Part shown: in pieces, positions 33,524 to 57,773 of the stretch
Layout: every line of letters starts with the position of its first letter
How positions within the stretch are numbered: the stretch's first letter is position 1
Assembly (NCBI GenBank): GCA_046483985.1
Contig: JAWOCD010000005.1
Coordinates: forward strand, 52,655-116,654
Direction of reading: 5' to 3'
DNA from: Promethearchaeia archaeon
GTDB lineage: Archaea; Asgardarchaeota; Lokiarchaeia; Sigyniarchaeales; SOKP01
Length of the DNA: 64,000 bases
The notes under the pieces: generated by a model
Told to the model about the DNA's origin: nothing
The model's database searches: none
Seen by the model: the letters and a program-made list of their open reading frames with translations, nothing else
Made by a program: the position numbers and the translations under genes

Positions 33524-33919
33524 CTAAATTTCTAAAAAATTTCGCAGCAAATTTCTATATTTTTTTAAATTTTCTTTCAAGATATCATAATGCGTAAATC
33601 TGCCTTTTTTCCACCCTCTAATTAATTCAATATTTTCAAGAATTCGGAGATGATGAGAGATTGTCGGTTGTGATTTATCTAAATATGCTTCCAATTCGCA
33701 AACGCAGCGATCCTTTTCCTTTAAGATCTCAAAAATTTTTAAACGATCTTCATTTCCCAATGCATTACAGAATCTCAAAACTTTTTGAAAATCTGTGTCC
33801 TTTGGAATTTTTCTACCTTTTTCTTGGAGATTCTGATAATATTCTACGAGGTCTCTATTTTTTAAATCTATACATCCTTTAAGTGTCTCAATTATCTCTT
33901 GTTTTCTATCTTTTCTCAT
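33524..33919 (-). CDS. arsR: ArsR/SmtB metalloregulator
   Basis: ALGNEDRLKI, RCVCEL (alpha3 As-binding CxC) and SQPTISHHL motifs. Confidence 0.9.
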   Translation of the reverse strand: MRKDRKQEIIETLKGCIDLKNRDLVEYYQNLQEKGRKIPKDTDFQKVLRFCNALGNEDRLKIFEILKEKDRCVCELEAYLDKSQPTISHHLRILENIELIRGWKKGRFTHYDILKENLKKYRNLLRNFLEI

Positions 33920-33997
33920 TTGACAGTCAATTAGTAGTATTTGTTTTTTACTTCTAATATATTATTATATCTTTTAATATTAAATTTATTTTTATCA

Positions 33998-34025
33998 ATT
34001 CAAATCGAAGCACTTAAATCCAAAT
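33998..34025. promoter_or_regulatory. Candidate ArsR operator
   Basis: ATTCAAATCGAAGCACTTAAATCCAAAT aligns with ATTCAAATCGAAACTGATGAATTCAAAT upstream of acr3. Confidence 0.5.
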
Positions 34026-34151
34026 AACAATATCAATGAATTAAAATATATAATACAAAAACAAAAAAATGTTTGAAAATGCCTAAAAGTAAAAAGAATT
34101 ATGAAATTATAATTGAAAAAGAAATTGATAGAGATCATTAGGGTGATAAAT

Positions 34152-34610
34152 GTGAAAAAAATAACCTTTCAAATAACTATGCCGGTGAAGGAGGTAAGTA
34201 AAAATAAGGAATTTATTGTTAAAGTTGATAACCACGCGACATTTGTTAATGCCTTGGCGAAAGTGGATAAATTTGCGATGGCTCATCCCGAAAAGGCCCA
34301 TTTTTCCGATGATCATAATTATATTCGGAGTTATTTACAATTATTTTGGGATCCGAAGGAGAATGAAATTTATTCGGATATACGGGTCTTTGCAGCAAGT
34401 CCCAAAGGATTTATGCCTATAGAGCGTAATATTAATTTTAACTTGCATAATGATAGTGAGATCTCGCTTACCTCTTCCTCATGAGGGTGATGAGGGGGTT
34501 TGGGAAATCGCCCCGGTTATGCAGAATTTAAAAACATTCTCCGGAATAAATACGGAAAAGAAGATGAAACCTTTATCCATTACTTTCAAGCAAATAGAAA
34601 TAATAATTGA
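34152..34610 (+). CDS. Putative three-selenocysteine beta-grasp (MoaD/Urm1-like) protein with a U-G-U-U-G-G motif
   Basis: GGTGA SD before GTG 34152; in-frame TGA at 34482, 34488 and 34491; 38 further sense codons (GGLGNRPGYAEFKNILRNKYGKEDETFIHYFQANRNNN) to TGA 34608-34610; SECIS directly downstream. Confidence 0.75.
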
Positions 34611-34649
34611 ATGATATCCTCCAACAAATGCTAGTGGAGGGTTGACAAT
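34606..34649 (+). ncRNA. Eukaryote-type SECIS element
   Basis: AUGA (34611-14), 8-bp helix AUCCUCCA/UGGAGGGU, AAA at 34626-28 exactly 11 nt after AUGA, and GA at 34644-45 in K-turn register. Confidence 0.8.
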
Positions 34650-34764
34650 GGGATCGCATCCCAATTTTTGATCTAAAATAGATAATCTAATGATATTTAA
34701 CCTTATTAGATTACGTGATATTTGGTTTTGACAAAATGAATAAAAGAATAAGGGAAATTAATTT

Positions 34765-35160
34765 TTAGATTTCTGCCAACTTTTTTAGTTCTGGCTCGGC
34801 ATTTTCTTGGGCCCAATCAAGGAGTTGATCATAATATTTCTCTACGTCCTCCTCTGGCGGAAGGTCCGCTAAGATAGCAAGTATGAACTGCGTATTTTCA
34901 TTAATTATAATATTACGGCAAATGATGAAATCCTCTTTATATTTAATCTTCATGGATTGAAAGGCTGATAAGTCAATCTCCTCTGCAGCTTTATATGCTG
35001 ATTCACTTAGCAGTGATCCCATAGCAGCTACTACCTTTTCATCTACCTCCTCTGCTTTTTGGGATGCTAAAACTAAGCCCGCCTCCGTTGAGAAAAGCGA
35101 GGCCCTGAAATCACCATTTTCCATCAATCCTTTTAATACTCTCTCCAATCGACTAACCAC
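34765..35160 (-). CDS. Roadblock/LC7 domain protein
   Basis: FSTEAGLVLAS...VAAMGSLL helix followed by beta strands, the roadblock pattern. Confidence 0.8.
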   Translation of the reverse strand: MVSRLERVLKGLMENGDFRASLFSTEAGLVLASQKAEEVDEKVVAAMGSLLSESAYKAAEEIDLSAFQSMKIKYKEDFIICRNIIINENTQFILAILADLPPEEDVEKYYDQLLDWAQENAEPELKKLAEI

Positions 35161-51602: not shown

Positions 51603-51773
51603 CTTGAAGAGGTTAAATTCAGAATATGATCGTTGTTGTAATTATGTTAGACACTTATTTAAAAAAATAGACTCTAATTAATTTCTTATTAATAGAAGTT
51701 TAATAATTTCATTTAGCTTCTTTGTCGATGGAAAAGTTTATTTTTCATTTAGGACTATTTCAATCACAAATTT

Positions 51774-51848
51774 GCGCGAGTAGTTTAGCTCGGTTATAAC
51801 GACACGTTCACACCGTGTAGAGCAGGGGTTCAAATCCCCTCTTGCGCA
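51774..51848 (+). tRNA. tRNA-Val(CAC)
   Basis: Acceptor GCGCGAG/CTTGCGC; anticodon arm ACACG-TTCACAC-CGTGT; T arm AGGGG-TTCAAAT-CCCCT; no intron. Confidence 0.95.
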
Positions 51849-52097
51849 TCCAACTCACGATTAAATACTTCTGATTTATCAAATGGAACGAGCAGATTCT
51901 CCAAAATAATTTCTCTCTTTTTTTCCTTACTATTGTGATTATTATCACAAGTTTGACTTCTTAAGAAGAACCAAAAATCTATCGTCTAAGAAGCCTTTTT
52001 TATTTATTTTTTCAATTTGAAGTCAATTAGTATTTGAAGTCAATTATTATTTTGATTTTTTTATATATAAATGACAATATTATATTTATAAAAATAT

Positions 52098-52128
52098 ATT
52101 CAAATCGAAACTGATGAATTCAAATCGA
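52098..52128. promoter_or_regulatory. Candidate ArsR operator upstream of acr3
   Basis: ATTCAAATCGA direct repeat with a 20-bp period, and an ATTCA-N12-TGAAT inverted repeat. Confidence 0.55.
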
Positions 52129-52185
52129 TAAATTTTAATATATCTAAATCTTATTTTAAATATAAGTCAAAATAAGTGGAATAAC

Positions 52186-53334
52186 GTGAATGATCATAAT
52201 AATAAAAAAAAATGGACTTGTCCTGAATGCGGACATGTAGCGTATTATGTAGGAGCGCCACCAGATCAATGTCCCCTATGTGGTGAGGAATTGAGTTTTT
52301 TCGATAAATTCCTTCCGTTATGGATCGCAATCTGTATAATAATTGGGCTTCTACTTTCTCAATTTGTCCCTAACATCGCCGAAGCAATTGATTCTTGGCA
52401 AATTGCCGGAATTTCCGTTCCAATCGGAATTTGTTTATTTCTAATGATGTATCCCGCAATGTTAAATCTTAAAGGTTCCGAAATTAAAAAATTGGGCCGC
52501 AATCCAAAACCCATAATACTTTCTCTTTTATCTAACTGGTTTGTTGCTCCTTTAGTGGGTCTGTTAATGGCGATTACATTTCTAGGAGGTAATCCGCAAT
52601 TAGTACTTGCTATAATATTACTGTCTAGTAGTCCATGTACTGCAATGGTTTTGGTATGGGGATGGATGGCAAAAGGAAATCAAGAGCAAAATGTTATAAC
52701 AACAAGTTTGAACACAGTTACCATCATCTTCTTTTATGTGCCGATGGTTTATTTATTAGTTTCATTGGCAAATCTTACATTAACAGAACCTATACCCTTA
52801 GATATTTTTCAATTACTGATTTCACTAGTGGTCTTTATCGGTCTACCACTTATAGTGGGATTAATAAGTAGAAAAACTCTAACGGATACAAAAGGGAAAG
52901 AATGGTTTGATGAAAAATATCGCCCCGCAGTCGGAAAAGTTGCGATCCTAGCACTTTTGATGACATTAATTATTCTATTCTCCTTAAATGGGGTTGTTCT
53001 AATTAAAAACCCTACCCTATTACTTCTAGTAACAATCCCATTGCTTCTTGGATTTGCCATTGTCGTAGGATATAATATTTTAGTTACAAAACTACTAAAA
53101 TTAAGATACAGGCAAGCTATCATTACGGTAATTATCGGATCATCCAGTCACTTTGAAATTGCTATTGCTGTAGCCGTTGCAATGCATGGTGTCGGTTCGA
53201 TCGCTGCCTTAGGTACTACTATGGGTTTGTTTTGGGAAGTGCCCGTGATGGTTTCGTTAGTATATTTGGGGAGATATCTTGGAAGACGTGGTTATTGGAA
53301 AGGTTACAAAGAAGCAATTACAAAATATACATAA
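52186..53334 (+). CDS. acr3: ACR3 arsenite efflux permease with an N-terminal rubredoxin-like domain
   Basis: FFDKFLPLWI, MMYP, SPCTAMVLVW, HFEIAIAVA and EVPVM motifs; N-terminal WTCPECG...PDQCPLCG. Confidence 0.93.
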   Translation: MNDHNNKKKWTCPECGHVAYYVGAPPDQCPLCGEELSFFDKFLPLWIAICIIIGLLLSQFVPNIAEAIDSWQIAGISVPIGICLFLMMYPAMLNLKGSEIKKLGRNPKPIILSLLSNWFVAPLVGLLMAITFLGGNPQLVLAIILLSSSPCTAMVLVWGWMAKGNQEQNVITTSLNTVTIIFFYVPMVYLLVSLANLTLTEPIPLDIFQLLISLVVFIGLPLIVGLISRKTLTDTKGKEWFDEKYRPAVGKVAILALLMTLIILFSLNGVVLIKNPTLLLLVTIPLLLGFAIVVGYNILVTKLLKLRYRQAIITVIIGSSSHFEIAIAVAVAMHGVGSIAALGTTMGLFWEVPVMVSLVYLGRYLGRRGYWKGYKEAITKYT

Positions 53335-56660: not shown

Positions 56661-57773
56661 TTAGGAATAGATATATTCTTTTACGCTATGGTCCTTATCT
56701 TTCAGTTTTACCAAGGCTTTATTGAAATGTTCTTGTGTAATCTCCGTTTTTCCCTCTCTTAAACACAGCATTCCTGCCTCAGTGCAAAGAGATTTTAGGT
56801 GCGCGCCACTAAACCGATCAGTCCCCTTTGCAATAGACTTAAGATTCGTATCTTCATGTAAATTGAGGTCACGTGTGTGGATTTGTAAAATTTTATATCG
56901 GGCATCTTTATCTGGGAGATCAAATCTAATAACTCTATCAAATCGCCCAGGGCGTAAGATTGCAGGGTCTAGAACGTCCTCTCTGTTAGTTGCAGCCACA
57001 AACATTATCCCCTCCGTATTAGCAAATCCATCTAATTCCGAAAGAAGCTGCATAAAGGTTCTCTGAACTTCTCGATCCCCTTTATATACTTCACTTGTTC
57101 GCTTTATTGCAATAGCGTCAATTTCATCGATAAAGATAATTGCCGGAAGGTTTTTTTTTGCTAAGGCAAAGACTTCGCGTACCATCCGGGACCCTTCTCC
57201 AATAAATTTTTGTACCAAATCAGACCCAACTAAATGAATAAATCGTACGTTCGTGCTATTTGCTACCGCTTTTGCTAATAAGGTCTTGCCTGTACCTGGT
57301 GGACCAGATAACAGAGCCCCGCTCGGGGCTTCTATTCCTATTTTCTCAAATAATTCGGGCTGCAGTAGAGGTAATTCAACTACTTCTCTTATTGCTTGAA
57401 TTTGCTCATCGAGCCCCCCAATATCTTCATAGGTTTCATCGGGTGTCTCCATAAGTTCCATTGCTGCAACATGTCCTCTGATATCCTTTGAGAGCACTTC
57501 TAATACTTGGAAACTTTTGGGATGTAAGACCACAGTGTCTCCTGGTTGAAAATCTAGCAGATCATTTTTGGGAATAATCATCCTATTGCCTGGTGTGTGT
57601 GAAATGATTGCTCGACCATCTTTGAGGACTCGTTCCACTGACCCGATCACCATGGGCTGGTCTTTGAAGCCATCCAGGAGTTCTTCATATGATTTTACTT
57701 TTTCTCTCAATCGACTATTTTCTTTCTCTAAATTTCGCTTTTTAGTCATATTCTCTCTAAAAGCATTTTTCAT
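56661..57773 (-). CDS. pan: Proteasome-activating nucleotidase (PAN)-like AAA ATPase
   Basis: Coiled coil, OB domain, [14 protein letters not shown] and EVQRT..QLL.ELDGF motifs; C-terminal HbYX (IYS). Confidence 0.9.

Follow-up and report, generated by a model that had tools for sequence, protein, structure and literature searches.

What connects two intergenic regions lying 18 kb apart on one contig of an Asgard archaeon? In a stretch of 64,000 nucleotides (nt), here called the window, from contig C101 of a Promethearchaeia assembly (Lokiarchaeia, Asgard; 4.06 Mb, 35% G+C), the gene of an ArsR/SmtB metalloregulator (arsR1) faces a gene encoding a small protein with several selenocysteine (Sec) residues (sel1). 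The spacer region between them (locus A) shares sequence with the region upstream of acr3, an arsenite efflux gene (locus B). The original prediction read this likeness as a split arsenic regulon, in which ArsR controls both acr3 and the selenoprotein gene. Our analysis suggests that what the two regions have in common is a cis-regulatory element belonging to the ars genes of this archaeal family, probably the operator of their CVC-type ArsR repressors, and that the regulon is wider than proposed, since it extends over at least five loci.

The four strings on which the prediction was built are all present where it had placed them, and two blocks do recur in the same order at both loci, each with an exact common 12-mer (AGTCAATTAGTA in block 1, ATTCAAATCGAA in block 2; Table 1) and with the second 12-mer starting 73 nt after the first at locus A and 77 nt after it at locus B. 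In the whole genome AGTCAATTAGTA is found at these two loci only, while ATTCAAATCGAA occurs five times; with up to one mismatch, the window contains three matches to the former (0.35 expected from shuffled sequences) and five to the latter (2.2 expected). The gene behind locus B is an acr3 by the NCBIfam equivalog TIGR00832 (293.8 bits, cut-off 282.8, with positions 1-326 of the 327 in the model aligned) and by a Pfam SBF match (4e-39); it is the single full tblastn match in the host genome, and no other acr3 was found there.

AT-rich spacers may resemble each other by chance. When spacer A was compared with the genome (blastn-short), many matches of 18-33 nt scored better than the A-B blocks, which, taken as single local alignments, are unexceptional for AT-rich DNA. 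The significance of single alignments was abandoned as a test, because AT-rich low-complexity matches dominate and spacer B is not ranked high, and was replaced by a test for two collinear blocks. Two collinear 12-mers in common with spacer A, with the spacing kept within 10 nt, were found at just one other place in the genome or at two, according to the filter applied. At such a rate (~1e-4 per 300-nt bin) chance would not be expected to produce a match upstream of the sole acr3. Since the single A-B alignments are unremarkable, the case rests on collinearity, on the gene behind locus B and on comparative data; the same core also turns up at three more ars-linked loci and among a dozen relatives, and we regard chance similarity as very improbable.

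The comparative data were obtained from ~16 kb around each of 20 sel homologs of related genomes, found by a six-frame search, in which ArsR and Acr3 were mapped (labels of the form L0xx denote individual loci fetched; L033, L034 and L035 are from the host assembly). Block 2 proved to belong to an element of ~26 nt, cAGATTTAWAnnTWTCGATTTGRAT when written in the direction of arsR. The arsR-adjoining spacers of the relatives contain one or two copies of it, sometimes in tandem, always in arsR orientation and 55-105 nt before the start codon; the conserved core is TCGATTT with RATTTA 6 nt upstream. The 26-mer at locus A has its end 78 nt before the arsR1 ATG, with the TCGATT core beginning 90 nt ahead of that codon, and lies 130 nt from the sel1 GTG, with an overlapping copy on the opposite strand (33981-34006); its orientation and distance to arsR are those of the orthologous sites of the relatives. 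The array at locus B stops 44 nt short of the acr3 GTG; the dyad ATTCA-N12-TGAAT noted in the original prediction lies in it and was confirmed at 52098-52119. The extent of dyad symmetry varies, from a perfect 10-6-10 arrangement in L013 and 9-12-9 in L031 to this 5-12-5 form.

Five loci of the host genome carry the element in the same orientation relative to the target gene; 45-130 nt ahead of the start codon, it reads ATYCAAATCGA-WA-N4-TAAAT in the direction of that gene. Pairwise, the similarity is strongest between the upstream regions of acr3 and of sel3, a sel1 paralog on contig C18 (92% identity over 39 nt, E = 3e-9), both of which contain tandem elements 20 nt apart. As the two Sel paralogs are only 36% identical at the protein level, identity of 92% in the element points to selection rather than recent copying.

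Specificity was assessed with a position matrix built from 12 sites, all from relatives, and scanned over both strands of the host genome (8.1 million positions). The concern that the motif might be common at unrelated promoters was not borne out: the four best matches are all ars-linked (Table 1). The maximum of the reversed matrix was 16.1 bits, and each of five column-permuted matrices gave at most one match above 20 bits. Spacers between arsR and acr3 from outside the training set (L020, L023, L030 and L019) also match. The simple pattern RATTTA-N6-TCGATTT has five matches in the host genome, four of them (locus A included) ars-linked, and its reversed control has no match; in 16 genomes of the same family it has 63 matches against 24 for the control, many of them on contigs with ars clusters. 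The sites without an adjoining arsR (locus B, C18 and C74) outscore the arsR-adjacent locus A, which argues that the element is not merely the core promoter of arsR. Further copies of ATTCAAATCGA were treated as chance or unclear: those at C74:9726, C74:92401, C18:116739 and C123:2560 lie inside open reading frames, and that at C87:35174, before an ABC ATPase gene, has its halves spaced differently.

The gene content of the relatives indicates how such a dispersed set may have arisen. Homologs of the sel1 product, named UGUU protein after its Sec cluster, do occur together with ars genes: in 17 of the 20 fetched loci acr3 and/or a close ArsR ortholog lies within ~6 kb of sel, often in one operon, and of the three remaining loci two consist of a short contig or a contig end. 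The arrangements include (with a colon marking the spacer) arsR:acr3-sel (L022, L026, L030), sel:acr3-arsR (L019, L021), acr3-arsM-sel (L024), acr3-sel-arsC (L009) and arsR:DUF166-acr3-arsM-(CpaM-HgcA-like)-(HgcB-like)-(Cys-rich 129-aa protein)-sel (L028). The relatives have one intergenic region, with one or two elements, between arsR and an acr3-containing operon whose variable partners are DUF166, arsM, the CpaM-HgcA-like gene, an HgcB-like ferredoxin, a Cys-rich ArsD/thioredoxin-like protein, arsC and the tandem-Sec protein. In the host genome the same genes are spread over four contigs (C101 twice, C18, C82 and C74), as five fragments accompanied by the element: arsR1 facing sel1 (locus A), acr3 (locus B), sel3 (C18), a second arsR (arsR2) with an acr3 relic (C82), and the cpaM-hgcA-like/hgcB-like pair (C74). 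With the queries used, arsM and an arsC of the low-molecular-weight protein tyrosine phosphatase type were not found in this genome. It appears to hold a fragmented ars cluster that has kept its operator: the cluster would have broken up, each fragment retaining the element in the same orientation to its target, and the broken-up operon is probably still switched as one unit. The "split arsenic regulon" of the original prediction is therefore supported, and in a broader form. The arsR2 locus (C82:56863-57500, L034) has its own element, followed by what appear to be the last ~40 codons of acr3, the rest of that gene being gone; its product is 60% identical to ArsR1.

The candidate repressor, ArsR1, belongs to the family defined by Pfam HTH_5 (PF01022; 4e-16, 59 bits against a cut-off of 22) and NCBIfam NF033788 (74.2 bits against 55), with SmtB, CzrA and CadC as its nearest solved relatives. 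Its residues 68-75, DRCVCELE, form a metal box of the ELCV(C/G)D type, which in helix alpha-3 defines the As(III) type-1 site (PMC5658604). CVCELE is kept in ArsR2 and in 14 of 15 ArsR orthologs (the remaining one has CICELN); ArsR2 and the 15 orthologs also share an N-terminal Cys (Cys16 in ArsR1) and the recognition helix SQ(P/S)TISHHLR. Conserved Cys16 is a candidate for the third As(III) ligand, outside the box, and the conservation fits an As(III) site in which an N-terminal thiol joins the CVC pair. Retention of both CVCELE and a near-invariant recognition helix is consistent with one operator shared by the orthologs.

We infer the binder, the inducer and the promoter geometry to be as follows. 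ArsR dimers would sit on the element. The A/T half of the element, TTTAWA, resembles the archaeal TATA box consensus; the TCGATTTGRAT half adjoins it, just downstream in the arsR direction and just upstream in the direction of the targets, and bound ArsR would hinder TATA-binding protein and transcription factor B (TFB) or RNA polymerase. On capture of As(III) at the CVC pair and the N-terminal Cys, the repressor would come off and the fragments would all be derepressed jointly.

Switches of this type are ordinary. The ArsR-Pars system of Escherichia coli (R773 and chromosomal) is an As(III)/Sb(III)-responsive autorepressor with the metal box ELCVCD, and it shares with the present system the HTH_5/NF033788 family, a CVC pair just before the recognition helix, a repressor gene next to an efflux gene and an operator-like element in the repressor's own upstream region. 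Unlike its E. coli counterpart, ArsR1 has no third Cys in the box, possessing the conserved N-terminal Cys instead, and the promoter context is archaeal (TATA with the TFB-recognition element, BRE) rather than -35/-10; the operator sequence is unrelated and weakly dyadic, and the targets are scattered over at least five loci. Imperfect repeats located at basal promoter elements or next to them are the binding sites of ArsR/SmtB repressors (PMC5658604, PMC8790569), and one such repressor serving dispersed ars genes has been documented: TtSmtB of Thermus thermophilus HB27, whose chromosome-interspersed targets were established by electrophoretic mobility shift assays and footprinting (PMC5658604). 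As for TtSmtB, we propose a single repressor of non-operonic arsenic genes, acting through related sites that overlap basal promoter elements. In contrast to that bacterial system, here the evidence is comparative, and the targets are acr3, the Sec-Sec proteins and the HgcA-like enzyme. The literature searched describes no operator of this kind for Asgard archaea; what has no description there is the sequence, the Asgard host and the targets (tandem-Sec proteins and an HgcA-like enzyme), rather than the type of switch.

Several observations weigh against the operator reading. Block 1 is lineage-specific, being absent from the arsR leaders of the relatives, and may be only a scar. The elements of several relatives show little symmetry, and no clean 12-2-12 dyad was found; the A/T half could be just a TATA box. 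In the matrix scan the element at locus A reached 12.3 bits and its overlapping opposite-strand copy 15.8 bits, both inside the control range. The closest relatives with arsR and sel divergently arranged (L013, L018) have the element near arsR and at least 440 nt from sel, so that sel1 is a less certain target of the site at locus A than acr3 and sel3 are of theirs. A third Sel paralog of the host genome, on contig C95 next to msrB, has no element upstream, and not every Sel paralog thus belongs to the predicted regulon. Finally, the sel family is found equally often beside HgcA-like/HgcB-like genes, which leaves room for Hg(II) or another soft metal. The site at locus A itself is a weak match to the matrix. 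The regulon reading is borne out by each test open to computation, among them the two computable refuting conditions of the original prediction (a motif common in the genome, and homologs that never occur with ars genes), neither of which applied.

The two loci might also be alike by descent without shared regulation. Both spacers would then derive from a duplicated divergent arsR-acr3 region, of which a basal promoter (BRE/TATA and leader) and an arsR scar remain. For block 1, descent is the best explanation of the similarity. On the minus strand, block 1 of locus B aligns over ~40 nt with the leader and start codon of arsR1 (ATT here replaces ATG), which suggests that block 1 may be an arsR leader and its copy at locus B the scar of a lost divergent arsR. 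To the left of it, the minus strand translated by eye gave no convincing ArsR N-terminus. A related string, CATGTGAGAATCAATTA, is present upstream of arsR2 at the position equivalent to block 1, and the retention of this leader together with the C-terminal acr3 relic shows that such deletions happened. Descent also agrees with the TATA-like half of the element and with the absence of block 1 from relatives. The other half is what tells against it: TCGATTTGRAT is no generic promoter feature, is nearly confined to ars loci in the genome and is conserved across genera in which the flanks are unalignable, and identity of 92% has been kept before sel3 and acr3, two places that no longer have an arsR to transcribe. 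We consider descent without a common regulator unlikely as the explanation of the shared sequence as a whole. Block 1 contains the TTCAAAT core in inverted orientation, and a role as a second operator is possible. Its own core, TCAATTA, was found upstream of sel in ~7 of 24 regions of the relatives, which a rough hand estimate for AT-rich DNA (2.5-6 chance occurrences) puts down to chance, and was discarded.

The product of sel1 is a genuine selenoprotein, as had been predicted. Its frame is kept through two or three TGA codons in 23 of 24 genomes of the same family, and six-frame matches in 30 other genomes pass through the TGA codons to residue ~150, ending in a conserved C-terminal helix with an HYF motif. 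The family comprises the subtypes UGUU, GCUU and (A/H)DUU, with the UU pair invariant. A selenocysteine insertion sequence (SECIS) lies directly 3' of the stop codon in 23 members, with invariant ATGA and GAC and compensatory changes in 8 of 12 predicted pairs, and the host genome contains a tRNA-SeC (tca) detected by ARAGORN. The database entries of the family are cut at the TGA or called with TGA as Trp, and are devoid of names and Pfam domains; no Cys-for-Sec homolog was found among 1.84 billion representatives. Selenoprotein genes with eukaryote-like SECIS are known from Lokiarchaeia (HdrA, VhuD, VhuU, SelD and a Prx-like protein; PMC11227280 and work cited there). Sel shares with them the 3'-untranslated SECIS of the ATGA...AAA...GA kink-turn type and the genomic tRNA-Sec, and differs in its adjacent Sec-Sec and in that the search gave no Cys-for-Sec homolog. 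It is not among the seven Asgard selenoprotein families of PMC11227280, nor in the 2026 catalogue (PMC13188914). Among the entries of the latter are Sec-containing ArsM, HgcA, HgcB and an ArsC-like protein from bacteria, which gives the use of selenium in metalloid handling a precedent.

A confident AlphaFold2 model of the sel1 product (pLDDT 88.9, pTM 0.86) has a beta-grasp fold. The best matches in VIA-align were SAMP1 (Z 7.0, 83 residues aligned, rmsd 3.1), CysO (6.8) and MoaD-like proteins (6.0), and Foldseek retrieved Urm1 and SAMP1 at E values of 0.01-0.06; these are moderate scores, which show no more than a common fold. The search also listed the cobalamin-binding beta domains of transcobalamin and intrinsic factor (Z 6.1-6.7). 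Carriers such as MoaD, ThiS, Urm1 and SAMP bear a Gly-Gly thiocarboxylate tail on the flexible segment after the last strand, and Sel, of the same fold class as MoaD, ThiS, CysO, Urm1 and SAMP (Z 5.7-7.0), has its reactive residues on the corresponding segment: the model places the Sec loop where the sulfur carriers have their C-terminal tail. Unlike these carriers, it has no conserved C-terminal Gly-Gly (only the window protein and the ortholog closest to it have a GG after UU, in an internal position), it possesses an additional conserved helix after the Sec loop, FK..(I/L)R.K(Y/F)GK....F.HYF, and no E1-like enzyme is seen nearby.

Three-coordinate As(III) is suited by two or three adjacent selenols, as it is by the thiols of ArsD and ArsR, and vicinal chalcogen pairs also serve in Hg(II) transfer. 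ArsD is an As(III) metallochaperone with a thioredoxin-like fold and the vicinal Cys12-Cys13-Cys18; Sel resembles it functionally, as a small soluble protein of ars operons with an adjacent chalcogen pair and a third one nearby. The resemblance does not extend further, since Sel is a beta-grasp protein with Sec ligands, without any Pfam or NCBIfam match or any sequence match to ArsD, and no ArsA partner was seen. That the selenols might chelate or reduce arsenic, as the original prediction had it, is chemically plausible. Location in ars operons and predicted co-regulation support an accessory ars role for Sel, perhaps as a carrier, and we infer for the Sec cluster a selenol-based capture of As(III); a role with a corrinoid methyltransferase or with mercury is a live rival.

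Besides sel3, the host genome encodes a further paralog of the CUU type on C95 (C95:48669-49130; L033:5667-6128), located just after an msrB-like gene. At C74:59560-61763 (L035:5555-7763), preceded by the ars element, lies a gene for a CpaM-type S-adenosylmethionine-dependent methyltransferase fused to an HgcA-like corrinoid domain with a cap-helix-like NVWCAARGG. The next gene encodes an HgcB-like 2x[4Fe-4S] ferredoxin ending in KCC. In relatives, the CpaM-HgcA-like/HgcB-like pair is found inside the ars operon, between arsM and sel. We call the fusion protein HgcA-like rather than HgcA, as its scores stay below equivalog level (NF040863, 182.9 bits against a cut-off of 275; NF043039, HgcAB-like, 179.3 against 285); its N-terminus reaches 127.6 bits with the CpaM model (cut-off 180), and the ferredoxin is likewise below the HgcB equivalog cut-off. 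The Cys-rich protein of 129 amino acids (L028:7549-7938, P0038) combines N-terminal SCC...SCC and a DACACEW motif with an ArsD/thioredoxin-like sequence pattern, has no Pfam or NCBIfam match, and is encoded directly upstream of sel in at least eight relatives. Its host homolog (C74:65733-65987) follows an ArsR-like gene with an ELCGCEL box.

These neighbours bring in another reading, namely a real regulon under a different sensor or signal: an ArsR-like protein of the ELCGCEL type such as that on C74, or Hg(II), Sb(III) or thiol/selenol stress, with the Sec-Sec protein serving HgcAB-like methylation. The element does precede the cpaM-hgcA-like/hgcB-like genes on C74, sel stands just after the hgcA-like, hgcB-like and Cys-rich genes in at least eight relatives, and the fold search includes the transcobalamin and intrinsic factor domains. 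Moreover, an ArsR-like regulator that controls hgcAB has been published for bacteria, in Pseudodesulfovibrio mercurii ND132 (10.1101/2022.10.17.512643; reviewed in PMC10349881). There too an ars-type repressor is linked to an HgcA-type corrinoid protein and an HgcB-type ferredoxin, and ars genes stand beside hgcAB; the present protein differs in being a CpaM-methyltransferase/HgcA-like fusion below the HgcA equivalog cut-off (183 against 275 bits). In PMC10349881, whose scope did not include Asgard archaea, arsR adjoined hgcA in just one archaeal methylator. Against a different signal, the constant neighbour of the element in relatives is a CVC-type arsR next to acr3, the acr3 product lies above the equivalog cut-off for arsenite efflux, sel is also found in minimal arsR:acr3-sel and acr3-sel-arsC clusters without an hgcA-like gene, and the ND132 regulator is itself arsenic-responsive. 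This alternative strikes us as rather improbable, and the CVC-type ArsR remains the preferred binder of the element.

Table 1. Features of loci A and B in the window and best matrix matches in the host genome
Feature	Position	Strand	Remarks
arsR1	33524-33919	-	ArsR/SmtB metalloregulator, 131 amino acids; faces plus-strand sel1
Block 1, locus A	33917-33943		matches 52013-52036; abuts/overlaps arsR1 start codon (CAT at 33917-33919); AGTCAATTAGTA at 33925-33936
ars element, locus A	33997-34022	-	reads tGGATTTAAGTGCTTCGATTTGAATt in arsR direction
Block 2, locus A	33998-34025		matches 52098-52125; ATTCAAATCGAA at 33998-34009
sel1	34152-34610	+	beta-grasp selenoprotein, 152 amino acids; GTG start after Shine-Dalgarno-like GGGTGAT
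sel1 Sec codons	34482-34484, 34488-34490, 34491-34493		U111, U113, U114 (U-G-U-U); stop TGA 34608-34610
SECIS	34611-34646	+	ATGA-stem-AAA loop-stem-TGAC, eukaryote-like; second hairpin 34650-34662
tRNA-Val	51773-51852		precedes locus B
Block 1, locus B	52013-52049		two tandem copies 17 nt apart: AGTCAATTAGTA at 52021-52032, one-mismatch copy at 52038-52049
ars element, locus B	52097-52142	-	tandem copies 20 nt apart (52117-52142, 52097-52122)
Block 2, locus B	52098-52125		ATTCAAATCGAA at 52098-52109; further copy ATTCAAATCGAT at 52118-52129
acr3	52186-53334	+	ACR3 arsenite efflux permease; GTG start; N-terminal CxxC...CxxC zinc-ribbon
Matrix rank 1	C18:75790		31.5 bits; 80 nt before sel3, sel1 paralog
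Matrix rank 2	C82:57329		24.5 bits; before arsR2, beside C-terminal acr3 relic
Matrix rank 3	window 52117-52142		23.4 bits; before acr3
Matrix rank 4	C74:59560		23.3 bits; ~90 nt before CpaM-methyltransferase/HgcA-like fusion gene
Matrix rank 5	C82:57313		18.0 bits; same arsR2 spacer

Some further features of the loci were observed. The zinc-ribbon of the window ACR3 (CPEC...CPLC, encoded within 52186-52300) gives a weak rubredoxin-like Pfam match; it is also present in the acr3 products of L019 and L021 (86% identical over the full length) and absent from most other relatives. Between tRNA-Val and block 1 (51853-52012) there are a 12-nt palindrome, CTTCTTAAGAAG (~51959-51970), and a T-rich run, and the tRNA gene beside acr3 may mark a rearrangement or integration point. 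A dispersed repeat of ~125 nt is present in at least 42 copies in the host genome (74-80% identity, several at contig ends), including C87:35021-35165 and C82:~57590-57700. It could be an element resembling miniature inverted-repeat transposable elements or a small RNA family; Rfam gave no match for it in a search made on loci with the C82 copy and not on C87, nor any match in spacers A and B or at the other loci. Contigs from four salt-lake metatranscriptome runs match the Roadblock/LC7 gene of the window (34769-35146) at 100% identity, which places this organism or a near-identical strain in the RNA libraries. In the same runs, pieces of acr3 (52292-52803) are matched by diverged contigs, ~8-10% different and hence from relatives, and the contigs do not cover arsR, sel or either spacer.

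The regulatory evidence, which is independent of gene neighbourhood, ties an uncatalogued family of tandem-Sec proteins to arsenic handling: sel3 has no ars gene beside it, and yet its upstream region is the best operator match in the genome. The presence of an HgcA-like corrinoid methyltransferase in the same predicted archaeal regulon bears on the original purpose of HgcAB-type proteins. A defined sequence of ~26 nt and a short list of target promoters are now available. It is tempting, albeit tentative, to suppose that a single arsenite-responsive operator switches the ACR3 pump, beta-grasp Sec-Sec carriers (UU, CUU and UGUU) that take up As(III) via As-Se bonds and pass it on, and a metalloid-methylating CpaM-HgcA-like enzyme. 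If true, this would represent a selenium-dependent, and partly corrinoid-dependent, pathway of arsenic detoxification without a described counterpart.

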